A stretch of 64,000 nt of DNA from Escherichia coli (GTDB lineage: Bacteria; Pseudomonadota; Gammaproteobacteria; Enterobacterales; Enterobacteriaceae): assembly GCF_024298765.1 (NCBI RefSeq), contig NZ_CP101210.1. One strand, given 5' to 3'. The translations under genes were made by a program, and so were the position numbers. Below the pieces are notes generated by a model. The model did not search any database. It was not told where the DNA came from and was given only the letters and a program-made list of their open reading frames with translations. Positions 38,005-55,878 of this stretch are shown here, piece after piece; position 1 is the stretch's first letter; the number at the start of each line of letters is the position of its first letter.

Positions 38005-38337
38005 TTAATTCTCATATTTAAAGTCGATGTTTATTTTGAGTGTTTCAATATTCACAGTGACTTCGCAACCATGCCAGAATGGCTTTTCTTGTGATTTAAA
38101 GTTATCCACAAACAAATTTCTTAGTTCCACCAAAAGATCTAAAAGTCTTTCACTGGCATCTGCGGTTTCAGTGATCCAATGTTGATTGCCCTGTTTATCT
38201 ACATAGTCATAAGTAAACTCACCACAGTCGCTTTCCGGTTCTAACTTTGCACACAGAATGATTTTGACTGCATCACTAGGAGTGATCGATAGCAACACCG
38301 AACCAATGTCATTATAAATATCCTGATCAGAACGCAT
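38005..38337 (-). CDS. cdiI: putative CdiI immunity protein for the adjacent CdiA-CT toxin
   Basis: 110-aa ORF whose ATG overlaps the cdiA stop (TAATG); position immediately downstream of a VENN-delimited CdiA-CT. Confidence 0.6.
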   Translation of the reverse strand: MRSDQDIYNDIGSVLLSITPSDAVKIILCAKLEPESDCGEFTYDYVDKQGNQHWITETADASERLLDLLVELRNLFVDNFKSQEKPFWHGCEVTVNIETLKINIDFKYEN

Positions 38338-41300
38338 TATTTACCTCCGGGTGCATTGTTAAATACTTTTTCAATCGGGCGACCTCCATCTATCGAATAT
38401 ACTACTTTAAATTTAGCAGGTCTGACACTATCCCCAATATACGATGGCTGAATGTTGACCTTAACCTCTTTTCCTTCACCCAATGCTTTTGCCCAAGTAT
38501 TTTCCATCTGCTTCCAGGCTCCTTTGTTCAGATTTCCATCCATTGGAACAAGGTTCAATTTTTCACCAGGACCATTAAAAATACTGGCTATTAAATGACC
38601 ACCCTCATCTCCATCAAGGCCACACTTACCTGCTTTACATTGTTGATAGCCATTTCTATCCTTTACATTAGGACTAAGAGTTGCTTCAACCTGGCTTGGC
38701 CTTGCCTGAGCATCAGTTTTATAAATTTTATCACCATCTACATGATAAACTTTATTCGGCTGTGGGTTATTTAGCTCTTTGCTCCAGTTCCCTTTACCAC
38801 CTGAGTCTAGCATCAGCTTTTCAAGTGACTCCGCACTGATTTTCTGACCTGTCTGTTTTTCAACAGCCATTAGAGCCTTCAACTCTGACAACTCGCTGGC
38901 AGACATTTTACCAACCGCCGCTACTGTCAGGCCCGCTGGAAGAGCATCGCCAGCGACCATTTCCGCAACCCAGATACTAACTTCATTTGCACACAGCACA
39001 GTATTCGCACCACAGGCACTGACTGCTGCCTGGGCGGCTGCAATTGCTTCCGGAGTCAGAGCAATCACTACCCCACCTGTAGCCCCCCCAACAAGCGCTG
39101 CTGCAATCGCTTTGTTTACAGCCTCACCGCGTTTACATTCAGCCCCGCCAGGGTTAGTCGAGCAGGACGCAATATCTTTGCCATGCTCCTGCACGAACTT
39201 GGTCTGAGTGTCTTCATTACCACCCAGCAGGTTATTCTCAACAACATTCTTCCCAGCAGCAGCTCCGGTAGCCACACCCGCAGTATTCCCACCTGCAACA
39301 CCACCCGCCATACCTGCTGAGATACTCGCCAGCGTACTTAGCGTCTGCTTCTGGTCCTCGGTCAGCTTCGACAGGTCTTTCTCATCCGGATATAAAACCT
39401 TCGCGATTGCACCTGCGATAAGTTCACCGCTCACCGCACCGACTGAACCTGCTGCGGCATTATTTCCCTGAAGAGCCGCAGTCACACCGCCGAGAATGGC
39501 ATGAGCAATGGCTTTCGCTGCATCGTTATCATTAATTCCAGCATTGTGCCCTATGAAGTTTGCCAGTTCCGGTGCAGAAGCTCCGGCCAGAGCACCCGCT
39601 AAATTCCCCCCAGCCAGTCCCTGAAGCGCGGCTGTCGCGGCCTGGATACCCCGCTGCATATCGCTACCGGTACCATACTTTTCCTGTTCCTTTTTGTATT
39701 CCGGCGTATCACGCAGTTTTGCCAGATATGCCTGCCGCTGTTCTTCCGTCGTATCCGCCGGAACAGGCCCATATTTATCCTGCGCAGCCTTCAACGCATT
39801 CAGTTCACCCTGCGTCCGCGCGATATCCGCCACCTGACTGCCTATGTCACTGATAAGCCCCACTGTCTGCAGACGCCTCTGCTCTTTCTCCTTGTCAAAT
39901 ATCGGGCTGATACTGTCGTTGGCGTGTTCCGGGTCACGGCTCAGGTTCGCCAGATTCTGCTTCTGATTGTCCCTGTCCCGGATGGTGATAGTGCCTTCTG
40001 CCACTGCGGCCTGAGTCGTTCCTTCCGCATGTCCGCTGTGACCTCCGGCGGATATCATGCCACCCGGCATGTTACCCTGAAATTTATCCCCGAAGCTGCC
40101 ACCACCGCTCAGACTGATTCCACTGTGACTGACTTTATAATCCGCTTCGTTGTGAAGGTCACTGAACCCCAGCGTTCCGGTATCCAGGTGGTTTTTATCC
40201 GGTGTGGCAGTGGAGGCAATCACCGCACCATCCAGTTGGGTATGTTTACCCACTGTGATGTCGAAGCCGCCGTCACCGGCAAACATTCCGGTTTGTTCAG
40301 CAACGGAGTCAAAGCGGCTCTTCATCTTATCCCGGGAGGCAGCGATGTAACCTGAGCCGGTCATGGAGCCAAAGGTAAAACTGCCGCCGGCAGCCACGCT
40401 GGTCTGTTTACTGTCGTACTTACTGGTGTCCTGCTGGCTGCTTATCAGCAGGTCGTGGCCCACATCGGCGATAATCCTGTTGCCGTTGACCTGAGCACCG
40501 TTCAGTACCGTATCCCGACCACTGTTGATGGTGACGGTTTTACCGCTGTCTATTGTGGTTTCAGTCCACTCAGTACCGTTACCTTTCTCGCTGCCTTTTG
40601 CCGCATTAACGCTGGCAAAGACACTGATACCGGCACCGTTACCACCGGCACCGATACTGACACCCACGCCACCGCCACTGCTGCTGTTCCTGCCCGTTGT
40701 TTTTTGTGTGTTTGCCGCGCCACTCAACAGAACATCATTCGCAGCATCCAGGTTTGTGTTACCACCGGCCTTAAGCTGGCTTCCGGCAATCACAATATCT
40801 CCGCGGTTATCGCCCCTGTTTTTACCGGTTGCGACAACAGACAGATTATTCCCGGCATTCAGCGTACTGCCGGATACTGTGTCACTTTCAGAATGTTGTT
40901 GTGATTTCGATTTCTGGGTGGTGAGCGACAGGCTGACTCCCATCGCATTCGGGTCACCGGTTGCGGAGGCCATTGCCGCAGCCTGTCCGGCCTGCACACC
41001 AGACAGCGCTGTCTTTGTAGCCTGCAGGGTTTTCAGACGGCTGTCACTGCTCTCCTTCGTCTCCTGTGCACTGGTGACCGCATTATTGATGGCACTGCCC
41101 ACTGTGCCGGAAAGGGCAACCGTCAGCCCGCTTTTCTTCTGCTCAAATTTTTCGTCCACAGTACGACGGTCATGCCCCGGGTCAACCACCACACTGTCAC
41201 CGGTAATGCTGATATCCCGGTTCGCAATCACATCCGAACCGCTGATATGAGCCTGTTTGCCCGCGGTAATACTGACATTACCGGCAGTGGAGCCGATGGT

Positions 41301-41801
41301 ACTGGCACTCTGACTCTGCGTTGTCCCGGCCTCGCGGCGGTCGTGCGTTGTCTTACTGCTGCCAATGGTGAAGCCAATACCGCCGGTACCCATCAGACCG
41401 GATTTCTTCGTTTCCTTAAAGCGCCAGGACGTATCTGTACTGGTGGCAGCAAGAACATCAACATGGTTACCCGCCGCCAGTGACACATCCCGGTCAGCCA
41501 CCACATCCGAACCCTCTACCGTCAGGTTATCACCGGCGTTAACGGTCACGCGGTTCCCCGACAGCAGGGAGCCTGCTTCACGGGAGGCACTGTTCTCACT
41601 GATGGTGTGGGTGGTTTTCTTACTGAGAAAACCTCCGCTTTTTTTCTTCGTTTCCAGATAGTGATAGTCACTTTCTGTCGCCGTGGTCAGGGCGACATCA
41701 CGACCGGCATTCACACTGATATTGCCGGTTGCGGTAACGGATGACGCAACAGCGGTGATACGCATACTGAAGAGCATTCCGTATAAAGATTCAGCTGGCA
41801 A
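38337..41801 (-). CDS. cdiA: 5-prime-truncated contact-dependent inhibition toxin CdiA fragment (FHA-repeat region, pretoxin VENN, variable CT toxin domain)
   Basis: 1154-aa ORF rich in Gly/Ser/Thr beta-helical repeats; VENN motif ([11 protein letters not shown]) encoded at 39231..39242; about 298-aa CT after VENN; no TPS domain or cdiB upstream. Confidence 0.8.
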
Positions 41802-42032
41802 AACTTTATCAGTCCATAAAAATCAACGGAAGCGCAGATGGTTCACACGTCCATTACCAACTGATTGTTGTCACAACCGGTAACACAAAGTACTGAACGA
41901 CTGTTTTTAACAGCGGTGTTGCGTCATCCACCACCGTGAAACAACGCTGTGCAGGGAATCGTCCGCATCCCCATAACGGTCAAACATCGTGGCGTTGACA
42001 GAATGACCGACGAAAAGCCAGAAAGCGCTGAT

Positions 42033-42581
42033 TCACTGAGCTGTAATCAATGTACAGCGCTGTACCGGACGATGGGTAATGGCGGTCACAACCGGTAACC
42101 CCAGAGACAATGCGACTGTTTTTAACGCAACATACTGACCGGATGTATCACCCCGGGCAACCCGAAAACACCTTTCCACCCGGCATTGTCCGCCAGCACT
42201 TATCACCTGCCAGCTATGTTGCAGTAAATCCACCACTTGCGAACATTGTTCATCAACTGTGACACAGGCTCGCGGGTGACAAATACTCGTCTGGCTGAGC
42301 AGCAACAGGCATCGAATTGTTGCTCCTCCATGTTGTTCCCGCAACCAGCGTAATACCACCGACGATGATGGACTGGCAGTGTGATTGCTCTCAGTAATAC
42401 GTTCATGCAGTTGTCGATAAAAGGAAGTACAGAATGCATGAATCTGTTGCCCGTTGATATTTCCTTCTGCCGAATGGAGTGTGAAGTAAAATGCCAGCAA
42501 ATGCGGCCAGTGGTCCACCGCCTGCTGAACAAAACGCCGGATGTCTCCCGGCTCTGAAATTAAGGCTTCGGTTATTTGCAC
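42033..42581 (-). CDS. YfjJ/YagK (inovirus Gp2-like) family protein, possibly degenerate
   Basis: 182-aa ORF; pattern ...RWLREQHGG..IRCLLLLSQ... parallels ...FWCREFGKMYGRKHYHVILLLNKD... of the paralogue at 61862..62593. Confidence 0.4.
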   Translation of the reverse strand: MQITEALISEPGDIRRFVQQAVDHWPHLLAFYFTLHSAEGNINGQQIHAFCTSFYRQLHERITESNHTASPSSSVVLRWLREQHGGATIRCLLLLSQTSICHPRACVTVDEQCSQVVDLLQHSWQVISAGGQCRVERCFRVARGDTSGQYVALKTVALSLGLPVVTAITHRPVQRCTLITAQ

Positions 42582-43026
42582 GAAATGTTCCTTTTCAAAC
42601 CCTGTTGGATTTTGTCAAGACGGTACAGACACAGTAAAGCGCGCATCAACACCTGAAAGGTACGATACAAACACAAGTTACAAACAATAAGAACGGAAGG
42701 ACAATTAATCAGTGAGGAATAATAACTAAATTAACCAAAAGAATGTTACTGACAATACCACCAATACTTAAATAGCAATATATTAATTAATGTAAGAACA
42801 GATGCCCGGTAAGACATATACACAATACATCCACAAACACACTCTTTTCATTAAATAAATCACCTGATTAAACCATGAAAGTGTGATGTAAGTCAAAATT
42901 ACTGACACAATCAATTGATAATGATTATCTCTATCATTATCGTGAAATTCGAGAATGAAAGGAGAAGTAGTCATTATAAGTCTTTTATAAATCGTCATCA
43001 TCATAGTAAAGTAGAACACTTTTTAT

Positions 43027-43485
43027 ATGAGTTACTATATGAAAATATACTGGACAAGAAAAAACATTCCTGAACTTTCAGCACTTCCACCTTCATTAAG
43101 AAAGAAAAATTTTACTGACGCATATAATGCTGCATCTTCCCATATCGAATACTGGATAGGTGCTGGCGTCTCATTTATCTCGATGATGATTTTATTCAAA
43201 GTATATGACTTTCTTTTACCCGCCCAAGATACTTTCCCGGGTGATATCATAAGAAGTTTATGTGTTGTGTGTCCATCCATATTAATCTGGTTTCAGTTTT
43301 CGGTATATGTCATGAGGAAATATTACAGACATATTCTGGAACGAGGTAAGGAAACCGAAACCATTTCAGAAAGGTTGATACGTGAGGCTGATACACGAGA
43401 ATATGAATTATGGCGTCCGGCCCATCGCTTTTTCTCCATTATTCTATTAGTTTGCATTCATTCACTGATAACAACTATAAAATAA
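43027..43485 (+). CDS. hypothetical small membrane protein at edge of microcin cluster
   Basis: 152-aa ORF with 2-3 hydrophobic helices; no recognizable family. Confidence 0.4.
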   Translation: MSYYMKIYWTRKNIPELSALPPSLRKKNFTDAYNAASSHIEYWIGAGVSFISMMILFKVYDFLLPAQDTFPGDIIRSLCVVCPSILIWFQFSVYVMRKYYRHILERGKETETISERLIREADTREYELWRPAHRFFSIILLVCIHSLITTIK

Positions 43486-43584
43486 AAGTTATGGCTGTTC
43501 TGATACAGGAAAATAAACGTTCATTCTATGGTTACCTCTTCCTGTTATATAAAAGAATTTTAAACAACAAGTAAGGGAATATAA

Positions 43585-44271
43585 ATGGAAATAACAAAAA
43601 ATAAAAATGCAACTATAAAAAAACAGTCATCAGCCGGCTGCTTTTCAATGTTTACTTTATCATTTTCCATTACCTTTATTCCTGCATTTCTTACAAACAG
43701 GCAGGAACTTATATCCAGGGGGCTTCTTGTTCCAGCATTATTTCTTGCTGAATTTCTAATTCTTGTTCCACTGTATTTTATTTTCTTCCGAAAAAGAGAA
43801 GGATTAGGAAGAGGTTCTTTTCGACTGGATGTTTTTTTTACTCTTTTCTCTTTAATAATGATTATTCAGTTATTTGTCCCTTATCTGCTGGCAGTGAGGA
43901 AAACGGAAGAATGGATGATCTCGCAAATGTCTTTTTCCGGGGCCATTTTATGGATTAATATATTTTCTTCCGTACTTCTTGTTCCTGTATATGAAGAGAT
44001 TGTATTTCGAGGGTGTCTTTTTAACTCTTTTAAATTCTGGTTTAATGACAATATTTACATCTCTGCTATTGTAACATCAGTCATATTTTCTGCATTACAT
44101 CTACAATATACTGACTTTCGTACATTTTTGATGCTCTTTCTGATATCGTTAGTTCTTATCAGTGCAAAAATAAAGTCGAATGGCCTGTTAATGCCCATAT
44201 TACTTCACATGGCGATGAATGCAGTCATAACAGGAATACAATATACGTTACAATATCACATAACAGTCTGA
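43585..44271 (+). CDS. CPBP-family (CAAX protease/Abi) intramembrane protein, MceF/McmM-like microcin accessory protein
   Basis: 228-aa polytopic ORF with CPBP motifs EEIVFRG, FSALH and HMAMN; such genes accompany class II bacteriocin/microcin loci. Confidence 0.7.
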   Translation: MEITKNKNATIKKQSSAGCFSMFTLSFSITFIPAFLTNRQELISRGLLVPALFLAEFLILVPLYFIFFRKREGLGRGSFRLDVFFTLFSLIMIIQLFVPYLLAVRKTEEWMISQMSFSGAILWINIFSSVLLVPVYEEIVFRGCLFNSFKFWFNDNIYISAIVTSVIFSALHLQYTDFRTFLMLFLISLVLISAKIKSNGLLMPILLHMAMNAVITGIQYTLQYHITV

Positions 44272-44644
44272 AATTGTTATTATGAGATATCTATAACACC
44301 TGAAGTTGGAAAAAGAAGCAAATAATTCCTTATAAGGAATCGTTTACTAATATATTTAGATGATCTCATATTTGTTTATGATATACATCTGATTAAGATA
44401 TAATGGATTATAAATTACTCAAAGGTGAACAAATATCTTCGCCTTTTCTCGTAGAAAGAGACTTGAAACTTATAATACATCTATATAAACGTGATTTAAA
44501 TCACGATTTGCAGTAAAAGCAATTGGTATAATTCATTGGTATTACTATTATTTCATCTATTGCACGAACTATTTTACAACAATAAAAAAGATATACAAAC
44601 AGCAAGAAGTAAAAATATTCGGATAAATAAAAATTTTTGCTACC

Positions 44645-44881
44645 TTGGTTTCTATAGTCTTTATTTCTAAGTTTTTCATAAGCACTCAAAGACTCATGTA
44701 TAGGGACGGTTTAATAATGAAACTATTTTTTTATTTCTCGTTGTTCTTTATAATACAACTTATAAATTCAGACTTAGACACATTAACCCTTTATCTTTTC
44801 ATAAAGAAAATAATTCTTTCGTTACTTGCGAGTGTACTGTTTTTATTTGTTTTATCTTTCTTTAATAAAAAGAGGAAATAA
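44645..44881 (+). CDS. small hydrophobic protein, candidate microcin immunity protein
   Basis: 78-aa ORF (alternative start at 44717 gives 54 aa) ending 1 nt before the microcin-like precursor gene; two predicted TM helices. Confidence 0.45.
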   Translation: MVSIVFISKFFISTQRLMYRDGLIMKLFFYFSLFFIIQLINSDLDTLTLYLFIKKIILSLLASVLFLFVLSFFNKKRK

Positions 44882-44882
44882 C

Positions 44883-45206
44883 ATGAGAAATATAACAACC
44901 GATGAACTTGCTTTAATACATGGTGCAGGATTAGATAAAGATGCATCCGTTGCAATAGGTACTGCGGCTGGTGGTTTTTTAGGTAAAGCAACAAAAATCC
45001 CTGGTGCGGATATAGCAGGAAGTGCAATTGGAGGATATATTGGAGGAGTTATTGCTGATGGTTCAAATAGGACAATAACAATACCATCAAACGGTATTAA
45101 CTATAATCCGGGTATAGGACTTGGAAGTTTTAATCCAAACTACAATGGAGGTTTATTAAACTCAGGATTTAACTCATCAACATCCTCTTCTAGTAGTGGA
45201 AGTTGA
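44883..45206 (+). CDS. double-glycine-leader class IIb (siderophore-type) microcin precursor, identity unassigned
   Basis: ORF track 44826..45206; start at ATG 44883 (RBS aagagg) gives 107 aa; leader MRNITTDELALIHGA-G parallels MchB leader; Gly-rich core; Ser-rich C-terminal tail NSSTSSSSSGS. Confidence 0.65.
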   Translation: MRNITTDELALIHGAGLDKDASVAIGTAAGGFLGKATKIPGADIAGSAIGGYIGGVIADGSNRTITIPSNGINYNPGIGLGSFNPNYNGGLLNSGFNSSTSSSSSGS

Positions 45207-45266
45207 TTAATTTCTAAAGCAGCATAGCTTATTATGCAGCAATGCTGCTTTTAGTGATATATTATC

Positions 45267-47369
45267 CTAATTTGTAATTCTAAAAATCCGATCAACTGTT
45301 CTTAAAGTTGTCTCTCTATGTGCAATAATCACCCGGGTGATATTCATCTTTTTTATAGCAGCATTCACGAAACGTTCACTTTCTGTATCAAGAGAACTTG
45401 TAGCCTCATCCATAAATAATATTCCAGGTTTCCGGTATAAAGCTCGGGCAATGAATATACGCTGTTTTTGACCGCCGGAAAGACCTTCCCCCAGTTCACC
45501 TATTAACGTTTCATACCCCATTGGCATTTTCATTATCACATCATGAATATGACTTGCTCTGGCACATTCTGTCATCCATTCGTCGTCTGTTTCTTCTGCA
45601 AACCCACAGATATTTTCACGAATTGATCCTGAAAATAGCCGGTCGTCCTGCATAACACAGGCTATCATACGGTGATAATTATTTATTCCAAGTTGACGTA
45701 TATCCGTGCCATTAACCAGTACTTTTCCACTATCTGGTTCAAACAGTCCACATAATACTTTCATTAATGTGGTTTTTCCGGCACCGGAGGCACCAGTTAT
45801 AGCCACACTTTCTCCCGGAGCCACAGACAAATTCAGACCACTGAATACCTGTGCTGACTGGCTGTCATACCGGTAGCTTAAATCAGTGGTTTCCAGTGAA
45901 ACCGGGCTCATGTCAGCAACGATTTCAATTTCCGGTTTCTTTTCTTCCTTTTCATGTAGTGCAATATCTGCAATGCGCTCATTATGCAGACTCATTATTC
46001 TCAGTTGAAGAAGAAAACTGGTCAGCGAAGCAACCCGATCCGAAAACTGCCCACGAAAAGAACCAAATGCCACAAACATCCCTATTGTCATCTGATTATC
46101 GATCACAAGGCTTGCACCCAGCCATAAAATCGCCACCTGATCACAGGCGGCAACAAAAGTATTTATCCCCCCGAAGAGCAAATCCATCCTGGTTAACTTA
46201 ATACCTGAATTGATCGCATCTATTTTCAGGTTAAGCCAGTGTGTTCCCCGAATCCCAGCCATACCCTGGATTTTTACCGTGGCAATACCATACAGGCTTT
46301 CCATAAAATAGGAGCTGGCCCGGGCCCCCCTGACAAGAGTTTCTTCCGATATTTGCCGGTAATAGCCGTATGTCACCAGACGAATAAGAACGTAAACCAT
46401 GGTAAAACCGAGCACTATCCAGGTAAGATATCCTCCATATAACAGCATCATCACAAAAACACCCACAACCATAATACTGTCCATGATTGCCCCAACAACA
46501 CAGGTGGTAAAGGTGGCCCTCAAAGTGTCAAGGGAGCCAAAACGCGACTGGATATCACCTAATTTACGGCGTTCAAAAAACGCCAGCGGCAGTCTGAGAA
46601 GATGGTTAAACAGACCCGACTGCCACTGTATATTGATGAGCGTGCTCATAACCAGTGAGGACCATGCACGCAGCATACTCACCGCGGCCCTGAGCAATAT
46701 AAAGAACATCAGGCCAGCAGAAATAAGCGTCAGCAGCCCTCTGTCCCCCGCCGGAATCGCATGATCCATAACCAGCTGAGTTCCCACCGGCATTACCAGA
46801 TTGATTGCTTCAATTACAACTGACAGACAGAAAATTTTCGCCAGTGTTCTTTTAATACCGTAAATACTGTTAATCAGTGAACGGAGACTTATGCGGGTCT
46901 GCTGGGTTTCCGCCAGGAATTCACTTCCGGGCCAGACCTCAAGTGCAATGCCCGTAAAATACCGGCTCATTTCCTCCCGACCGAGATATCTTCTGCCTCT
47001 GGCCGGATCATGCAGTACATAACGGTTACGCTTTACGCTGACCAGCACGACGAAGTGACTGAAATCCCAGTGGAGAATACACGGCATTTTGAGGGCACCA
47101 AGTTCATCCAGCTCCAGTGAAAGAGCCCGGGTGACCATCCCCAGCTGCTCCGCTATTCCATTGATTCCTGCAAGGTTTGCTCCACGGGCCGAGAGATTAA
47201 ACTTCCGGCGAAGAGATATCAGGTCAATATTCTTACCAAAATGACCGCATATCATTGCCAGGCAGGCCAGTCCACATTCAGCGGTCTCCGTCTGATGAAT
47301 AACCGGAACACGACGTCGCCAGCGCATATCAAGCTGATTTATAATTTGTCTGAAATTCCCGTTAGTCAT
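45267..47369 (-). CDS. mchF: microcin export ABC transporter with N-terminal C39 peptidase domain (CvaB/MchF family)
   Basis: ORF track 45267..47387; near-identical over long stretches to remembered CvaB ([32 protein letters not shown]...); Walker [10 protein letters not shown], signature LSGGQKQR. Confidence 0.9.
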
Positions 47370-48636
47370 TGAGCGGTCCTGTTGCACTGTGTTTCATGTC
47401 ATAGAAAGGAGAAAGCATCCACTGGTAAATACGCCTTTTTTCCAGAAATAGTGTACTTTCGGCTTTCATTCCATTTTCCAGAGGGAGGTATTTTTCGTCA
47501 TATCTGATAATCTGCTTTTCAGGCATCGCAATGACTTTATACCAGGGAACAGAGTCGCCCGGCGTATTCTGTGGTGCTCCCTTATAGGTCAACATTTCCT
47601 GTGTTGACGCAGGAGTCCTGGATATAGTTTTAACCGTAGCAGAGAACTGCCCAAATTTTTCTGCCGGAAAGGCTTCATAACGAATATTCACTTTGTCACC
47701 AGCCGAAATATAAGGAACAGCATCATTCGGGACCCAGAGAATAAGATAATAGTTTTCAATGTTCTCAGGAATAACCTGCAGAAGGCTGTCTCCGGTATTG
47801 ACCATTTGCCCGACAGTGACACTCAAGGAGTCAACTTTCCCGTCAGTCAACGCCCGGATAATGATTTCGCCCTCCACATCAGTGTTAACCAGTTCTTTCT
47901 GTAACTCATACCGTTGCAGTTCCATCTGGTAGATACGGTTATCAAAATCTGCAGCCTGAGTCTGAATCTGACTCTCCAGAGTGGTTATCTGCAGGGCATT
48001 CTGTTCGTTCTGTCCGCTCAGGCTGAGAAGATTGTTTTGTTGCTGATAATATAATGCCACCTGGTTAGTTAACTGATCTTTATTAATCAGCCCTTTTGCC
48101 TGATAGTTTCTGTAATTCTCCATATTGTTTTTCATTATTTTTATCCCTTCCTCTGCACGCTGTATAATATCTGATGAGCGACGAAACGCATCTGTGTATT
48201 GCAGGCGTTGTTTTTCCAGGGTATCTAGCGTTATTTTTTTACTTTCTTCCAGACGGGAAATAATGTTGTCCACACGAACCAACTGGTTTTCTATATCCCG
48301 ACGATGATTATCAGTGACAATACCACTACGTGTACTTTTACTGATGTCAATCAGATAAACAGGATCCCCTTTTTTTATCAACTGTCCTTCATGAACAAAC
48401 TGCCTGACAACAAATCCCTGTACACCTGAATATATATTGACAGCTCTTGGCCAGGTTGTGACCTCACCACTGACATTAACACGGCGGCTATAGGTACCAA
48501 CAATAATGAACATCAGAAATGCCGTAATAAACACTATGCTTCCCAGCATGATTAACCATAGTGGTATTCCGGGAAGTAATATTGCCCGTCCCTGCCACTT
48601 CATTTTTCTGTTTTCTAAAGCATCCTGACGAAACAA
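47362..48636 (-). CDS. mchE: microcin secretion membrane-fusion protein (CvaA/MchE, HlyD family)
   Basis: 424-aa ORF; N-terminal TM anchor, coiled-coil region; matches remembered CvaA. Confidence 0.9.
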
Positions 48637-48788
48637 AATAGCTCCTCTTACTCACACTTTTCCTGTAATACCTTCACTGGTTAACCGAAATGCTATAATC
48701 AAAGCCAGAAAATATAGAGTCCTGTTAAAATAGTATCAGCGATGCATTTACCCCGTAATTTACAATTATCTCTGTATCTTCAGAGGTA

Positions 48789-49241
48789 CTACGTTTTATG
48801 CAGCCGCTCAGGGATGTATGTCACAATTTTCTTTCGCCTGCTTAACCATCGTACTTCTCCTTCTCCCCATGGCTGAAGCTGTATGAGATAGTCAATAACT
48901 TTTCGACCAAAGCCTGGTTTACAACAGAAATCCAGAATCCAAATCCTTCCATCTTCATTCCATTCAGACGGATGCAACCTGAATTCTGGATCCCTGAGCA
49001 GGCGCGCTTCTGTATCAGCCTCAAGATATGCCCAGGTAATATACGCCAGTGGAAAACCTCGTGAATCAAACAGGAATTTAATCTGATTATGCTGTATCGC
49101 ATATTCAGTCCAGTATTGAATGGTTAACACCGGATACAGACTGTAATTACGATTGTAGAGCATACAACTGACCGCAAAACCGATCTGTTCATAAACAGTC
49201 CATTCATCTTTTCCTCTGATGTTTTCCCTTATATAAGACAT
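48789..49241 (-). CDS. mchD: microcin maturation accessory protein (MchD/MceI-like)
   Basis: 150-aa ORF between mchE and mchC; assignment by synteny with the H47/E492 systems as remembered. Confidence 0.55.
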   Translation of the reverse strand: MSYIRENIRGKDEWTVYEQIGFAVSCMLYNRNYSLYPVLTIQYWTEYAIQHNQIKFLFDSRGFPLAYITWAYLEADTEARLLRDPEFRLHPSEWNEDGRIWILDFCCKPGFGRKVIDYLIQLQPWGEGEVRWLSRRKKIVTYIPERLHKT

Positions 49242-49266
49242 GATTACTATTTCCCTTATATATTTT

Positions 49267-50817
49267 TTACACTGTGTTTCTTATCGGTTCAAGATATCCA
49301 AATGCATCTCTGGAAAACTTAAGCATAAAATTTTTCATATCAGAAATTGCTTCTTGTAAAAAAAGGGGATCATCGCCATGATTATCCAGCAGGATGGCAA
49401 TTTTTTCGCACATATTCTCTTTCCTCAGCTCTTCCCTGGGTTGCAGCCTTTTCATGGTATGATGTTCAATTTCTTTCAGGAGTAATGAGGCATTTATCTG
49501 ACGTCTGGTACTGCCTTGCGTCAGCCAGTGGATGGCCTGGGAAAAACACTGTTGTGCAACGGTGAAATAAACATCATTCTTGATGCTACTATTCAGTGCC
49601 TGCTTTTGATTATGCCTATGATGGATTAGCGTCACAACCAACTTTTGCAATGGTGAACCATCCTGATTGACAATATCTTGGGCATGTGATTTCTCGCAGT
49701 ATTGATTGAGTAATGCAACAAAACTGTTAACCAGTTCTTTCAATATATCAGGTATCTCTTTTTGTGTTATAAATTCTCCAGGAATACCCAACAGTTCTAG
49801 ATAACAGTAATAACATGCTTCATGAAAAGTTTTCTGAAATATCTCCTCAACCTTCAAACGGGCTGCAAGAGTGAAGTCAGGGTCAAACATATATTTTCCG
49901 ATATACAAGCAGAGATCAGACAGCCCTTGCATAAGTACCATCGGTTCTTTTGCCAGTTCAGCTAATCTTAGTTTATACCCAAAATCAGCTGGGGAATCTC
50001 CCGGAAACAGACAACTGAGTCCGCTAAAATCCATTAATCTGCCATCCATTGCAATATTAGAAGGAGAAGTTGTCAATCTCAGGAAACGTGTTCGACAAAA
50101 TGCCATTTGCCAGGCCTCACGACGTGCCAGTTCACATAACCCCTCAATGCAATAAATCCGGGGATCAGTTCGTGCTTCAGCATCAATTTCTTCCGGTGGT
50201 ACAGGTAGATATCCTGGCAGCTTGTGGATCACAGATCTAACCCGACAGGCATCGTGAATTAACAGACTGGAATACTCCGGTTTTACTTGGAAGTAAGGTG
50301 CCCGTTCAAAATGCGCCGGACGAACAACAGGCTCACGTACCAACAGGGCTCTTCGTGATTTCCTACCGGAGCGCTCAAATGCCTTTTCAGTATAGAGATC
50401 TGTAAGTAAAACCGCCCGAACCCGCACAGCACTATAAGGTAATATTTGAGCCAGTACTTCTCCCCACAAAGCCTCATATATTGCATGAACAGCGCCGAGT
50501 GCACCATTAGAATGACGTTCGTCAGTACCTTCGCCAACCAACGGATTACTTCCTATTCCTTTAACCTGGTAGTTACCATCAAACCCACAACGTGCACCAC
50601 CTCCATTACGCTGAATACCACTGCCACCATAGCGCTCTGCATGGAACACTTTGGCAGAAGCTGTACTGCCAGGATCGATAATATAACTGCAGGCATTTTG
50701 CAGCTCGTCTGGATTTCTGACATCCTCTGCACACCAGATTAATGAGGCCTTGATCTGCCTGGCAGTGAAAGGCACCAGGTTTTCATTCAGTTCAGAAAGT
50801 GAACACTGATGACTCAT
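49267..50817 (-). CDS. mchC: microcin maturation protein (MchC/MceJ-like)
   Basis: 516-aa ORF immediately downstream of mchB; size and position match remembered MchC. Confidence 0.6.
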   Translation of the reverse strand: MSHQCSLSELNENLVPFTARQIKASLIWCAEDVRNPDELQNACSYIIDPGSTASAKVFHAERYGGSGIQRNGGGARCGFDGNYQVKGIGSNPLVGEGTDERHSNGALGAVHAIYEALWGEVLAQILPYSAVRVRAVLLTDLYTEKAFERSGRKSRRALLVREPVVRPAHFERAPYFQVKPEYSSLLIHDACRVRSVIHKLPGYLPVPPEEIDAEARTDPRIYCIEGLCELARREAWQMAFCRTRFLRLTTSPSNIAMDGRLMDFSGLSCLFPGDSPADFGYKLRLAELAKEPMVLMQGLSDLCLYIGKYMFDPDFTLAARLKVEEIFQKTFHEACYYCYLELLGIPGEFITQKEIPDILKELVNSFVALLNQYCEKSHAQDIVNQDGSPLQKLVVTLIHHRHNQKQALNSSIKNDVYFTVAQQCFSQAIHWLTQGSTRRQINASLLLKEIEHHTMKRLQPREELRKENMCEKIAILLDNHGDDPLFLQEAISDMKNFMLKFSRDAFGYLEPIRNTV

Positions 50818-51088
50818 CTGGCAGTATTCTCCGTTTCAATTTTCATAAAAGAGTGTTCATAAAAGAGCAAGTAAGTGTCCTGACAGCTTCTTCCTTATTA
50901 CAGTAAAACTCTATTAATTACACATAAATTAAAAAATTATTTATCAACGACTGTAAATCATATCTTCATCAGTAAAGTGTTGAACATAAAAACACACTTA
51001 TAAATGGATCTTCTATCTGTTTTAAACAAAAAGGATATATTTTACAGGTACTACCGAAAAAGTGCCTGTAAAATAAATAAAAATATAA

Positions 51089-51316
51089 TTAGCTACCGCC
51101 ACCAGCAGAAGAACTGGCACTACCACTTCCCACGGTCGAGCCAATTGCTGTTGTCAAACCGGCAGATACGGCTCCAACTACAACCCCAAGTGGACCACCA
51201 GGTATTCCGGCGAGAGCTCCAACAATAGCTGCAGCACCTGCAGCATTAGCTGAAGTCGCTGGCGCACCTCCCGCCCCGGAAATATATCTTAACTGTGATT
51301 CTGTTATTTCTGGCAT
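51089..51316 (-). CDS. mchB: microcin H47 precursor
   Basis: 75-aa ORF M(P)EITESQLRYISGA-GGAPATSANAAGAAAIVGALAGIPGGPLGVVVGAVSAGLTTAIGSTVGSGSASSSAGGGS; core matches remembered MccH47 sequence. Confidence 0.9.
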   Translation of the reverse strand: MPEITESQLRYISGAGGAPATSANAAGAAAIVGALAGIPGGPLGVVVGAVSAGLTTAIGSTVGSGSASSSAGGGS

Positions 51317-51343
51317 ATAAACTGCATATAAACTCCATCATAT

Positions 51344-51553
51344 TTAACTTCCGTTTTTCCAGTCTGACCAGACCAGAATCCTTCGAATCCCATGAATCAG
51401 CTCAATAAAACCAAGAAATATTATAAAGCTTAGAAAAACGTCAACATAAGAATTCCCTTCGCCAACAATCCGAAGGGATGAAAGTGAAACCAATAAGATA
51501 GTAATAGGTAAACTGAATATAGCCGTCAATTGGGACAGTTTTTTATAACTCAT
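51344..51553 (-). CDS. mchI: microcin H47 immunity protein
   Basis: 69-aa hydrophobic ORF immediately upstream of mchB on same strand; size matches MchI. Confidence 0.75.
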   Translation of the reverse strand: MSYKKLSQLTAIFSLPITILLVSLSSLRIVGEGNSYVDVFLSFIIFLGFIELIHGIRRILVWSDWKNGS

Positions 51554-51964
51554 TAATCCCTACCTGTTGCTTTATTTTCATTATGAAAAGTTACCAAATC
51601 TTAGCACCTCAGTCAGGAGAGTCAGGTCATCGATAAAGAATATTCCAGTAGAGTGGCGCTCATGATCAAAGATAACAGCAAAGTTGATGACAGTGCTGAC
51701 CGACTGTCATTTACAGAAACCCTGTTTGTAGCAAATTCCATCTTACCTGACCTCACCCAGACAAAGACAAAAGAGAATGATTGTTATTTACTTTTCAAAA
51801 AAAGTGTCATATTGTCCATATAAAGTCAAGAGGTATTTTACGTTATGTCACTGATGCAATTGTTAGTCAGGATCTCATGGTTGTCGCTCATGTATAACCT
51901 GAGACTTGAACGCACACTAATAGCGCTGACGGTCATACATCGGGAAATGTGAGGAGGCATAAGA

Positions 51965-52210
51965 ATGAATTGTGATAATAATCACAGAAATGAAGAATTC
52001 ATTGTTACCTTTGATAAAGGCAACAAGCAAGACAATTCAAGACGAAAACACGATAATTTTCCTATAGAGGTAGAATCCTCCGTAGAGCAGGAGACACACT
52101 GTATCACAAATAATAAGTCAGCTTCCGGTATAGTAACACATGACTATGATGCCGATTATATTTGTGGTTGTGGTGAAATTATGTGTCCTGGTTGCGGTCA
52201 TGACCTATAA
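51965..52210 (+). CDS. small Cys-rich hypothetical protein
   Basis: 81-aa ORF with C-terminal CGCGEIMCPGCGH cluster; no family assignable; coding status uncertain. Confidence 0.3.
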   Translation: MNCDNNHRNEEFIVTFDKGNKQDNSRRKHDNFPIEVESSVEQETHCITNNKSASGIVTHDYDADYICGCGEIMCPGCGHDL

Positions 52211-52365
52211 CAAACATTTTTGCAAACTGATACCTGATCAGGTACAAGCCTGTTGATTATTATGCTGAATATTTCATGTTATAAAACCATCGATATAAAC
52301 ATTAACAAGAAAAAACATATATTGTTTATCTGAACATTTATCGATGGAAAACCAAAGGGGAAAGT

Positions 52366-52800
52366 ATGTATCTTACGAAAAAGATTATAATAAGTATGAT
52401 GTTTATATTACCATCTGCTGCATTTTCATCAGATCCACCTCCCCTTCAACAATCGTTAGAAAAAACAACCTATTTTTCTATAGGTATGAATGGGTTTATA
52501 GGCTATCAGAGCGAAGGGGAAAAATTATACACACACATTCTTACATTAGATAATCCCGAAGAGATATTTAAAAATATAATAGAAAATAGAAAGTCAACTA
52601 AGGAGTCTAAAATTTATGCTGCTTGTGGGCTATATTATTTAAACGTAGAAAATATAGAGTCATTGTTTAATGAAAATGATAAACAAGAATATATGTCTGT
52701 CTTAAGAGGGGATATTTTAACAAAAATAAAACTGAATGATATTCTGAATTCTGTGATAATAAATGGTTGCAACACCAAATTAATATCTGAACATAAATGA
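52366..52800 (+). CDS. secreted small protein adjacent to microcin-like precursor (possible immunity/accessory protein)
   Basis: 144-aa ORF with Sec signal peptide (MYLTKKIIISMMFILPSAAFS); ends 16 nt before the precursor gene. Confidence 0.45.
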   Translation: MYLTKKIIISMMFILPSAAFSSDPPPLQQSLEKTTYFSIGMNGFIGYQSEGEKLYTHILTLDNPEEIFKNIIENRKSTKESKIYAACGLYYLNVENIESLFNENDKQEYMSVLRGDILTKIKLNDILNSVIINGCNTKLISEHK

Positions 52801-52816
52801 GCAGGAGGTTTTTAAA

Positions 52817-53053
52817 ATGAGAGAAATATCAGATCACATGCTTGATTTCGTGAAAGGAGGGATGAATCTTAATGGATTACCTAGTTCTACTAATGTAATA
52901 GATCTACGAGGAAAAGATATGGGAACATATATTGATGCTAATGGAACATGCTGGGCTCCGGGTACTCCATCCATCATCATGTATCCGGGGGGAAGTGGAC
53001 CTTCTTATAGTATGAGTAGTTCCACATCCAGCGTAAACAGCGGCACATCATAA
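52817..53053 (+). CDS. double-glycine-leader class IIb microcin-like precursor (possibly MccI47-type; identity not confirmed)
   Basis: 78-aa ORF; leader MREISDHMLDFVKGG; Ser-rich C-terminus SMSSSTSSVNSGTS; located next to IroD/IroB homologues. Confidence 0.6.
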   Translation: MREISDHMLDFVKGGMNLNGLPSSTNVIDLRGKDMGTYIDANGTCWAPGTPSIIMYPGGSGPSYSMSSSTSSVNSGTS

Positions 53054-53337
53054 ATACCCTCCGGCATGGCCGGAGGGTATTTATGATGTGCCTGTAAGAC
53101 TCTACTTCTGTCGTCTCTTTACAAAGGCATATGATCTGTCATTTTGTACCAGACATCTTAACGAGAGCCTTTTCATATATTACTTACATACGTGAAATCT
53201 ACAGTATAAAGCAAAAATTTTATTAAACCTGTTTTATATTTATCATCAATACAACAGATTTAATTCCGGAAAGTCACTCATCATCCCTTGAATGAACGTC
53301 ATTTGATGTATTATTCTTACACTTGGATTAATTTAAG

Positions 53338-54612
53338 ATGATACCTATGAAAAACTATCTTTTCCAGACTCCCGAAGATATTTGTGTACAGTTAAAAAAA
53401 ATGACACATCCTGTCACAATAAGAACAACAGATATTGCTAATTTCTGGCACTATCTTGAGTCAGCAACACTTCCAGTGATCACAAAAAGCACCACTACAG
53501 AAAATCGGGAGGTTACATTTCTGTGGCGCTCAGAGAAAGCACTGCAAGGCGTATATCTTCGCCTGAATCGTGTTACAGATAAAAAAGACGTCAAAAAAGG
53601 ACTAATGACTCATATCCCTTCGACAGATATCTGGATGCTGACACTGGTGTTACCAGCTTCATATCGGGGCTCATACTCATTTATAGAAATTCCCACAGAT
53701 ATGACACAAAAAGACATATTTCAACTAGGAAGTCGCTTCTCTCCATTACCCGGTAAATCTGATCCATTTAACAAAACAGCAGAAATAAATATACGAGGAT
53801 TCGGAGAATCAGTCCTTTCTCTTGATATGGCTCCTGAACAAAAGGAATGGGATGATACTTCCCATAAATGTACAGGTATTCTTTCAATATTACATTCCTT
53901 TGTTGCAGGATATCAACGCCGGATTCGTTTATATTTCCCCCTGAATCCAACATCAGTACCTCTTGGATTACTTGTGTTACCTGATGCTGAAACATGGTTT
54001 GACCGGATAGATATTACCCGGGCATTAGATATGGCCATCACCACTGGTCGTATCACGCCAATGGCAATTATGGGGATAGACAATATTAATGAATCTGATC
54101 GTATGAATATACTGGGAGGCAATAAAGAACTCATCTTTGATATAGCGGAAAATCTGATACCCCAGTTATACAGAGACTATCCGGATATCGTATGGGCTGG
54201 TCGCTCTAATACTGTACTGGCCGGGCAGAGCCTCGGTGGAGTGACAGCACTGATGGCAGCTATATATGCGTCGACAACATTTGGTACAATCATTAGTCAC
54301 TCACCTTCAATGTGGTGGAACCCTGACCAGGGCAGCCCGATCTTGTTTACTGAGAATAATACCTCCTGGGTAAGTGAGCAGATACTTTCAGCGCCTCCGA
54401 AAGATGTAAATATCCGACTTGGAGTCGGTTCTTTAGAAGGTACAACCGTCTCACATGTTCAGCGATTGCATCATTCGTTAATCGCAGCTGGTTTGGAAAG
54501 TAACCTCACTGTCTATACCGGTGGTCACGATTATGCTTGGTGGCGCGGAGCAATTATTGATGAATTAGCAAATTATAATTGCAGGAAGGTATCAAATAAT
54601 AACTCTGTGTAA
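53338..54612 (+). CDS. enterobactin/salmochelin esterase homologue (IroD/Fes-like; MceD/McmK/MchS1-type)
   Basis: 424-aa ORF with serine-hydrolase motif GQSLGG. Confidence 0.7.
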   Translation: MIPMKNYLFQTPEDICVQLKKMTHPVTIRTTDIANFWHYLESATLPVITKSTTTENREVTFLWRSEKALQGVYLRLNRVTDKKDVKKGLMTHIPSTDIWMLTLVLPASYRGSYSFIEIPTDMTQKDIFQLGSRFSPLPGKSDPFNKTAEINIRGFGESVLSLDMAPEQKEWDDTSHKCTGILSILHSFVAGYQRRIRLYFPLNPTSVPLGLLVLPDAETWFDRIDITRALDMAITTGRITPMAIMGIDNINESDRMNILGGNKELIFDIAENLIPQLYRDYPDIVWAGRSNTVLAGQSLGGVTALMAAIYASTTFGTIISHSPSMWWNPDQGSPILFTENNTSWVSEQILSAPPKDVNIRLGVGSLEGTTVSHVQRLHHSLIAAGLESNLTVYTGGHDYAWWRGAIIDELANYNCRKVSNNNSV

Positions 54613-54753
54613 AATATCGTTTTATCGTCCGATAACTCTTTCTGCAATATTATTATGGGAGACTGTCTCATTTATTTAGTGATGTCCTTCATTTATGTGA
54701 TGAAGGACATTATATTACTCATAACATTTCTCGTTGAAAATTTCAGCAATACG

Positions 54754-55878
54754 CTACAATTGTTTCCCGTTGTTTTTTAATTTTCTCATCAAAACCTCTG
54801 CGATCTCTGCAGGAGTGGGTTGTTCAGCCATTTCAGCGGCTACCTGATCTGAACAGAAGCGTAGTGAATCATCATAAAGCAGGCGATTTACCAAATCACT
54901 GGTCAGTCCATGCTTGTCCGGAATAATCCCACACCCACGCTTCGCAACAATTTCTGCATTAACAGAGCGATCTGCACCTTCTCCAAACACAATCTGTGGT
55001 ATTCCACTATACAGCGCTGTCAGGGTATTACCTGCGCCACCGTGATGAATAAATCCATCAGCTCCATTAAGGAATACACCCATAGGTATCCAGTCAACCA
55101 GACGTACATTTGATGGTAGTTTTCGTAATCCAGTACGAGCATTTATTGCAAGTTGCAAAATGATATCAGCATCAACTTCATTTGCTGAATCCATAACCCA
55201 TGAAATCAGCTCCAGACCATCAACCATTGGTTTTACAGTGCCAAGGCTGATGAGTAAACGTTTCCGATCAGAATCCCTGTCCCACCATGTTTCCTTTACA
55301 GCACCTCCGTTATAAGGAATATATCGCATTGAGATAATCGGTTCTTCAGCATTTTTAAGAATGCTCATACTTGGGGGAGCAACATCAATCCATGCTAAAT
55401 CACATAGTGGACCGCTGACTCCATGCCGCCTGTAAGCATTGCTTAAAGAACGGTTTAACATCTGAATATGGGCAGATGTATGCGCGAATCCAACAGCCAG
55501 CATCACTGAAGAAATTCTATATTTAGCAGCAACCAATGGGCCTGCCGGACCAAGCGGGGGATAGACTATTAAATCTGGCCTCCATTTTCCTGCAAAATCG
55601 ATGAGGTTATCTGCCATTTCATCGCTAAAAAAAGAGAAATGACCAATAATATTACTTTTTTTCCTCAACTCTTCCTGATGACGATATCCAGCCTCTGAAT
55701 CTAAACTTGGAGCTGCATCAAAAACAACCAGTCCAGCTTCTGCTGCTTTATTCGCGAATTTGCCAGCGCTACTAATTACTACATCATGTCCGATTACACG
55801 AAAGGCCTGAGCCAGAGAAATCAATGGGTATAACAAACCGTACAGCGGAGGGCCAATAAAAAGAATACGTTTTCGCAT
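54754..55878 (-). CDS. IroB-like C-glycosyltransferase (MceC/McmL/MchA-type) for siderophore-microcin maturation
   Basis: 374-aa ORF; GT1-family architecture; C-terminal donor-binding region ...HHGGAGNTLTALYSGIPQIVF... Confidence 0.7.
   Translation of the reverse strand: MRKRILFIGPPLYGLLYPLISLAQAFRVIGHDVVISSAGKFANKAAEAGLVVFDAAPSLDSEAGYRHQEELRKKSNIIGHFSFFSDEMADNLIDFAGKWRPDLIVYPPLGPAGPLVAAKYRISSVMLAVGFAHTSAHIQMLNRSLSNAYRRHGVSGPLCDLAWIDVAPPSMSILKNAEEPIISMRYIPYNGGAVKETWWDRDSDRKRLLISLGTVKPMVDGLELISWVMDSANEVDADIILQLAINARTGLRKLPSNVRLVDWIPMGVFLNGADGFIHHGGAGNTLTALYSGIPQIVFGEGADRSVNAEIVAKRGCGIIPDKHGLTSDLVNRLLYDDSLRFCSDQVAAEMAEQPTPAEIAEVLMRKLKNNGKQL

Follow-up and report, generated by a model that had tools for sequence, protein, structure and literature searches.

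The mcmM–mchF slot of an Escherichia coli H47-type microcin island holds the published class IIb microcin Ec W and its immunity gene

In a 64,000-nucleotide stretch of E. coli DNA (RefSeq contig NZ_CP101210.1; hereafter, the window), we find two small adjacent genes that almost certainly constitute the Ec WI–Ec WA immunity–toxin pair of a class IIb siderophore microcin, housed in the mcmM–mchF slot of a complete H47-type island. Since the precursor is identical in both DNA and protein to the published Ec WA, and the immunity ORF differs from its published counterpart at two bases, the locus is the Ec WI/Ec WA pair; and since Ec W was published and tested in 2025, it is a known toxin and not a new one, so that no discovery value is left in the locus itself. 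The pair and its immediate surroundings comprise the following features.

43585..44271, + strand: CPBP-family intramembrane protease gene (mcmM position), 228 aa; CPBP in RefSeq and by NCBIfam CPBP models
44245..45281, no strand: variable cargo cassette in place of mcmI-mcmA, between mcmM and mchF; delimited by a blastn comparison with the MccM-type cluster of NCTC10444
44717..44881, + strand: Ec WI immunity peptide, 54 aa (MKLFFYFSLFFIIQLINSDLDTLTLYLFIKKIILSLLASVLFLFVLSFFNKKRK), two hydrophobic helices; same length and position as NCTC10444 Ec WI
44883..45206, + strand: Ec WA, class IIb microcin precursor; DNA and protein 100% identical to NCTC10444 3367929..3368252, WP_001390454.1
45214..45254, no strand: hairpin between the convergent Ec WA and mchF stops; from fold energy and a terminator scan
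45267..47369, − strand: mchF, ABC exporter with N-terminal C39 leader peptidase domain; RefSeq 'microcin export peptidase/ABC transporter MchF'

Ec W (Ec WA/Ec WI) was named in April 2025 from E. coli NCTC10444 by Bhattarai, Bucci and Mortzfeld (PMC12999681). That paper describes a 107-aa uncharacterised protein (locus NCTC10444_03266, 3367929..3368252) lying between mchF and mcmM in reverse orientation, with a Ser-rich tail, zero cysteines and a 15-aa signal peptide with a GA end, together with a manually found ORF for Ec WI at 3367763..3367927, one nucleotide from Ec WA (PMC12999681). When WI and WA were cloned under pBAD in a class IIb overexpression host, producer cells expressing Ec W alone failed to grow, whereas those that also expressed the 54-aa peptide grew again (PMC12999681). 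Producers were active on E. coli, Klebsiella pneumoniae, K. aerogenes, Salmonella Typhimurium and Shigella flexneri, as well as on several Brenneria and Gibbsiella species, and were inactive on Acinetobacter, Pseudomonas, Enterobacter cloacae, K. oxytoca, Proteus, Serratia marcescens and Staphylococcus aureus (PMC12999681). In the authors' view, Ec W takes the place of microcin M in the classical cluster and is related to Gq W; they let cluster 2 of NCTC10444 start at the CPBP gene (mcmM) and end at 3378925, and they name mcmK and mcmL within it (PMC12999681).

A base-by-base comparison of the window Ec WA with that of NCTC10444 gave identity at 324/324 nucleotides and 107/107 residues, and the same protein, WP_001390454.1, is the Ec WA of ACN002, NCTC10444 and O104:H4. 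Between the start of the CPBP gene and the stop of mchF, the window and NCTC10444 differ at 16 of 1682 nucleotides, and the window Ec WI matches its published counterpart (NZ_LR134092 3367763..3367927) at 163/165 nucleotides and 52/54 residues. Besides the precursor itself, the two loci share the 1-nt spacing to a 54-aa ORF, the mcmM–mchF position, the orientation convergent with mchF and a flanking island of mchFEDC, mchB, mchI, mchS3, mcmK and mcmL. They differ in that the strain of the window has one island and NCTC10444 two, and in that the window carries V16I and L28F in Ec WI, R2P in mchB, and a MccI47-like gene with an intact GG leader and one more tail residue. A full-text literature search found neither the peptide sequence nor WP_001390454.1. 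The sequence-only reading that preceded this analysis had called the microcin unassigned and perhaps uncharacterised, and had named near-identity to a published precursor as the finding that would overturn this. That is what we found, the precursor being 100% identical to the Ec WA of NCTC10444, which has been named, expressed and assayed.

The Ec WA gene (ATG 44883, stop 45204..45206, from the window sequence and the ORF list) begins with a leader of 15 residues ending in GA (MRNITTDELALIHGA, encoded by 44883..44927), after which the mature part starts at G16 (GLDKD...). By composition count, the 92 mature residues include 20 Gly, 14 Ser and 0 Cys, and they close with ...NSSTSSSSSGS, that is, with the Ser-rich tail SSTSSSSSGS. 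A strong Shine-Dalgarno sequence, AAGAGGA at 44870..44876, lies 6 nt 5' of the ATG. Published criteria for class IIb precursors comprise a Ser-rich C-terminus with a final serine, fewer than two cysteines, a GG or GA leader end within the first 15 residues and, as criterion iv, an immunity gene in the form of an ORF with a transmembrane segment no more than 200 bp away (PMC11634061). All four of these features are present in the window sequence. The leader also lines up with those of MchB, the MccI47-like peptide and McmA, and the gene is linked to an intact set for maturation and export (mchC, mchD, mchE, mchF, a glycosyltransferase and an esterase, all within 45267..55878). Thus the double-glycine-type leader, Gly-rich core and Ser-rich tail that had been picked out from the sequence are all in place, and the assignment to a siderophore-type class IIb precursor with its own immunity gene was right, as judged by these features, by the gene linkage and by the published assays of the identical Ec WA.

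The earlier reading had also found the peptide unlike MccH47, MccE492 and MccM, and our searches bear this out: by BLASTP, Ec WA aligned to McmA at E = 2.5 and to the MccI47-like peptide at E = 17, with no match to MchB, and the E492-group NCBIfam model (E492_microcin) did not match Ec WA even at E <= 10. No NCBIfam family matched Ec WA, Ec WI or the MccI47-like peptide at E <= 10. The Pfam MccV family (PF17508) aligned to residues 1-56 only, with E = 0.057 and a score of 14.4, which is below significance, and residues 1-58 gave subthreshold matches to MccV and to glycine-zipper families. These weak matches fit a membrane-active core but are no proof of one.

The ORF upstream of Ec WA ends with TAA at 44879..44881, leaving the single spacer base 44882 before the Ec WA ATG. 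Read from its mechanical start at TTG 44645 it spans 78 aa; begun at the in-frame ATG 44717 it spans 54 aa, and hydropathy then places two hydrophobic segments at roughly residues 2-16 and 28-49. Of these, the shorter form with the ATG start (44717..44881) is the immunity gene, rather than the 78-aa TTG form. Of the earlier proposal of an immunity ORF of 54 to 78 aa ending 1 nt upstream, the spacing therefore stands, as does the shorter size, this being the form that was cloned and found protective; the 78-aa size does not. Two alleles occur among the genomes compared, I16/F28 in the window and in K56-43-un, and V16/L28 in NCTC10444, O104:H4 and NCCP15648. The published immunity assay used the V16/L28 allele (PMC12999681), while the window carries I16/F28. 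The mature Ec WA is identical across the four genomes examined, and one strain has a leader change, N3H.

On its two sides, the pair is flanked as the sequence-only reading had described. The CPBP-family gene precedes it on the + strand; its product is annotated as such in RefSeq, matches NCBIfam CPBP models down to E = 9e-13 (under the curated cut-offs) and shows EEIVFR and HMAMN motifs in translation. Since mchF lies on the − strand with its stop at 45267, Ec WA and mchF are convergent across a 60-nt gap. This gap holds a hairpin with a minimum free energy of -19.3 kcal/mol (z = -2.8 against shuffles) and a terminator-like scan match at 45236..45248 followed by TTTT, and is likely to act as a bidirectional terminator. 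The window MchF differs from that of NCTC10444 at 3 residues and has no internal stop. A 37-aa ORF at 44403..44516 (+), in the AT-rich spacer 5' of Ec WI, is probably no gene, since in a related Salmonella locus the short stretch that separates mchF from the immunity-like ORF contains no counterpart of it.

The remainder of the island extends from mchF as follows.

47362..48636, − strand: mchE, exporter component of the HlyD family (membrane fusion protein); same protein as in NCTC10444
48789..49241, − strand: mchD, maturation gene; intact
49267..50817, − strand: mchC, maturation gene; intact
51089..51316, − strand: mchB, microcin H47 precursor, R2P variant; intact
51344..51553, − strand: mchI, immunity gene for mchB; intact
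52366..52800, + strand: mchS3; intact
52817..53053, + strand: MccI47-like precursor, 78 aa; absent from the ACN002 RefSeq annotation
53338..54612, + strand: mcmK, esterase-type alpha/beta hydrolase; intact
54754..55878, − strand: mcmL, glycosyltransferase; intact

In the established MccH47 and MccE492 systems, MchC and MchD serve to attach the siderophore moiety. All partner genes in the window are present and without internal stops, so that three class IIb precursors (H47, I47-like and Ec W) are accompanied in the window by a full set of maturation and export genes. An IS2 element lies 3' of mcmL. The window mchB starts MPEITESQ, with the leader change R2P relative to both NCTC10444 and O104:H4 (WP_071780941 versus WP_001375214). 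The MccI47-like precursor (MREISDHMLDFVKGG...SSTSSVNSGTS) sits directly 3' of mchS3 and, compared with the cluster-2 copy of NCTC10444, has a GG leader (KRG there), A44T, A73V and one added tail residue.

The steps by which Ec W would be made and would act can be proposed from the established MccH47, MccM and MccE492 systems. By this analogy, the IroB-type McmL would glucosylate enterobactin, the IroD-type McmK would linearise the product, and MchC and MchD would join the siderophore moiety to the C-terminal serine of the Ec WA tail. The C39 domain of MchF would cut the leader after Gly14-Ala15, a step for which the conserved 11-letter motif is present in the ORF translations, and MchE, MchF and TolC would export the 92-residue Ec W. 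Target cells would presumably mistake it for a siderophore and import it through TonB-dependent catecholate receptors, whereupon the Gly-rich, glycine-zipper-like core may act on a putative inner-membrane target; the two-helix Ec WI would protect the producer at the same membrane.

Compared by blastn with the MccM-type island of NCTC10444, the window loses homology at 44244, which is 27 nt before the CPBP stop, and regains it at 45282, within mchF and 15 nt from its 3' end; the flanks are 95.6% and 96.5% identical, and 44245..45281 gave no alignment to this cluster. This break and restart indicate a 1037-bp cassette in place of the 742-bp mcmI-mcmA, in the opposite orientation. The GC content of the cassette is 0.28-0.37, against 0.42-0.50 for mchF, and falls to 0.28-0.29 over 44000..45000, making the cassette the most AT-rich part of the region. 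Microcin M (McmA/McmI, as in CA46, Nissle 1917 and cluster 1 of NCTC10444) thus lies in the same slot, with the CPBP gene on one side and mchF on the other, and shares with Ec W its leader type, the logic of its Ser-rich tail and its maturation and export genes. However, McmA has no significant similarity to Ec WA, and mcmI-mcmA runs co-directionally with mchF, whereas WI-WA is convergent with it. According to PMC12999681, BLASTP relates Ec W significantly to only one other class IIb microcin, Gq W of Gibbsiella quercinecans (PMC11634061), the founder of the 'W' clade, which comes from another species and is far more diverged from the window sequence than the Ec W of NCTC10444. The clade relation of Ec W and Gq W is taken here from PMC12999681. 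Class IIa microcins such as microcin V (PF17508) share with Ec WA the double-glycine leader and a Gly-rich N-terminal region, but Ec WA differs from microcin V in lacking cysteines and a disulfide and in ending with the Ser-rich tail of class IIb, its gene being part of a cluster for siderophore maturation.

Of 5426 complete E. coli genomes, 116 (about 2%) matched a 1-kb query covering the locus, on the chromosome in every case, and the 490-nt WI-WA pair is at least 99% identical in these 116. ACN002 is 100% identical to the window over the 1-kb query. The sources of carriers are human, poultry, calf, cat, dog, deer and water, and carriers include O104:H4 2011C-3493 and HUSEC2011. In O104:H4 2011C-3493 (NC_018658 3184806..3203295), an identical Ec WA accompanies the V16/L28 Ec WI, the CPBP gene is in two pieces, and an IS5-like element lies 3' of mchS3 at the place of mcmK-mcmL; since these two genes would be expected there, maturation in this strain may need genes elsewhere in its genome. 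In K56-43-un, mchF is truncated. The RefSeq records examined label Ec WA a 'hypothetical protein' (as with the 107-aa ORF of ACN002) and omit Ec WI, and there is no NCBIfam or Pfam model for either. Closing this annotation gap is where the value of the locus for annotation lies, given its presence in a carrier group that includes the lineage of the 2011 O104:H4 outbreak.

Beyond E. coli, a homologue of Ec WA with 109 aa, 66% identity over the alignment (73% by local BLASTP) and a Gly/Ser tail ending in Ser is found on a plasmid of Salmonella enterica (CP191517). Its gene lies 3' of, and co-directional with, mchCDEF, whose MchF homologue has the domains PF03412, PF00664 and PF00005, and an immunity homologue precedes it. 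The metagenome homologue P0005 (107 aa, 66% identity over the alignment, 74% by local BLASTP) was recovered from two independent samples (contigs L004 5432..5949 and L005 768..1091) and ends ...SPANAPFRNNR, with no other reading frame of these contigs yielding a Ser tail; it resembles a W toxin that lacks its tail. On L004, a 64-aa immunity homologue overlaps the start of the toxin gene, hicB and a two-component system adjoin, and the 6-kb contig contains no mchCDEF. The immunity ORFs of CP191517 and L004 both align to Ec WI, and both lie 5' of the Ec WA relatives. Measured against the Salmonella plasmid and metagenome homologues, pS was 0.64-0.82 (saturated) and pN 0.20-0.37 for both genes, so that Ec WI and Ec WA are under purifying selection. 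The possibility that the two are chance ORFs was discarded on the strength of these values and of their conservation in 116 genomes.

A profile search of 1.84 billion representatives returned about 15 relatives of Ec WA, mostly without a Ser-rich tail. One of these loci (P0012) is of class IIa type, with a small upstream immunity-like ORF (unaligned) and an MchE/MchF-type exporter only. The relative P0019 (103 aa, 34% identity to Ec WA, E = 9e-11) ends ...SNGQ rather than in Ser, and may or may not be Gq WA. It belongs to a locus at L007 7795..9229 (GCA_011752615.1, VWXF01000002.1) with a 60-aa ORF (unaligned), in a cluster of class IIb type that has a glycosyltransferase followed by mchC-, D-, E- and F-like genes; a second precursor, 3' of P0019, is a typical class IIb peptide of 100 aa ending SSSSSSSSGS. 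The presence of relatives in loci of both class IIa type (P0012) and class IIb type (P0019) suggests a toxin core common to the two. We would tentatively go further and speculate, knowing that the sequences may well turn out to mean otherwise, that the Ec W core represents a wider undescribed family that moves between IIa- and IIb-type loci, that Ec W is a fusion of this toxin with an uptake module, and that the I16/F28 allele may differ in specificity.

Scans for regulatory elements gave little directly upstream of the pair. In the spacer 5' of Ec WI, a scan counted 7 sigma-70-like sites where 7.3 would be expected, the best Fur-box matches in this 445-nt AT-rich spacer were 12-13/19, with shuffles scoring as well, and an Rfam search of 42000..46000 returned only a chance-level match. 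Further upstream, a Fur-box-like array at 42911..42941 includes a 17/19 match to GATAATGATAATCATTATC at 42917, with overlapping matches of 14-15/19. The box at 42917 is about 90 nt 5' of a 152-aa ORF (43027..43485) that is co-oriented with the CPBP gene. This arrangement suggests iron control of the 152-aa ORF and the CPBP gene, possibly with read-through into WI-WA. The 152-aa hypothetical ORF (+), which has hydrophobic segments and precedes the CPBP gene, matched no Pfam or NCBIfam family; it is conserved beside the CPBP gene in islands of the Ec W type and of the MccM type alike, and is frameshifted in cluster 2 of NCTC10444.

Three other accounts of the pair have to be weighed against its reading as a working Ec WI–Ec WA module. 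It is very improbable that the immunity protein is a longer product, of 78 aa from TTG 44645 or of 61 aa from ATG 44696: although the frame is open from 44645, the homologous immunity ORFs have 4-10 more N-terminal residues than the 54-aa form and the Shine-Dalgarno sequence before ATG 44717 is weak, the region 5' of the 54-aa start has no similarity to the homologues, TTG 44645 has no Shine-Dalgarno sequence at all, and in the published test the 54-aa form alone rescued producer growth (PMC12999681). For these reasons, the 78-aa form with its unconserved extension was rejected. That the pair is intact yet silent or unproductive in its native setting, an AT-rich horizontally acquired cassette that goes untranscribed or unmatured so that no Ec W is made, is an unlikely account, if one with more in its favour. 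The low GC content over 44000..45000, the lack of a promoter-like excess or a convincing Fur box in the spacer, and the decay of the island in other carriers (the split CPBP gene and IS5-like element of O104:H4, the truncated mchF of K56-43-un) all fit it, and all published activity came from the pBAD overexpression host rather than from the native locus (PMC12999681). Against this, every accessory gene is intact in the window, the mature toxin is invariant in the sampled genomes, both genes bear the mark of purifying selection relative to distant homologues, the Shine-Dalgarno sequence is strong, WI and WA are only 1 nt apart, and the Fur box 5' of orf152-CPBP could drive read-through.

The third account concerns the role of the tail. 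If the Ec W core were a self-sufficient toxin of class IIa type, the Ser tail would only broaden or sharpen uptake and the siderophore would be unneeded for killing. Relatives with the same core and no Ser-rich tail, among them P0005 with its ...SPANAPFRNNR ending in two independent samples, would agree with this, as would the P0012 locus with its immunity-like ORF and exporter and the subthreshold MccV match. We nevertheless consider it decidedly improbable for Ec W, as Ec WA shows every class IIb feature and lies within a full maturation cluster, and the Salmonella relative, 3' of mchCDEF, retains a Gly/Ser tail with a final Ser. Siderophore modification strongly boosts the activity of other class IIb microcins. 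We retain the reading of the locus as the immunity–toxin pair of a siderophore microcin. The tail-less relatives constitute a small natural test of whether class II microcins combine one module for toxicity with another for uptake, and the modular evolution of the W core is a modest lead.

Adjoining the microcin island in the window is an orphan contact-dependent inhibition module at 38005..41801 (−). Its toxin gene, of the hemagglutinin-repeat (CdiA-like) kind, is truncated N-terminally and has a distinct C-terminal domain; an immunity gene of the YezG family comes after it, at 38005..38337.
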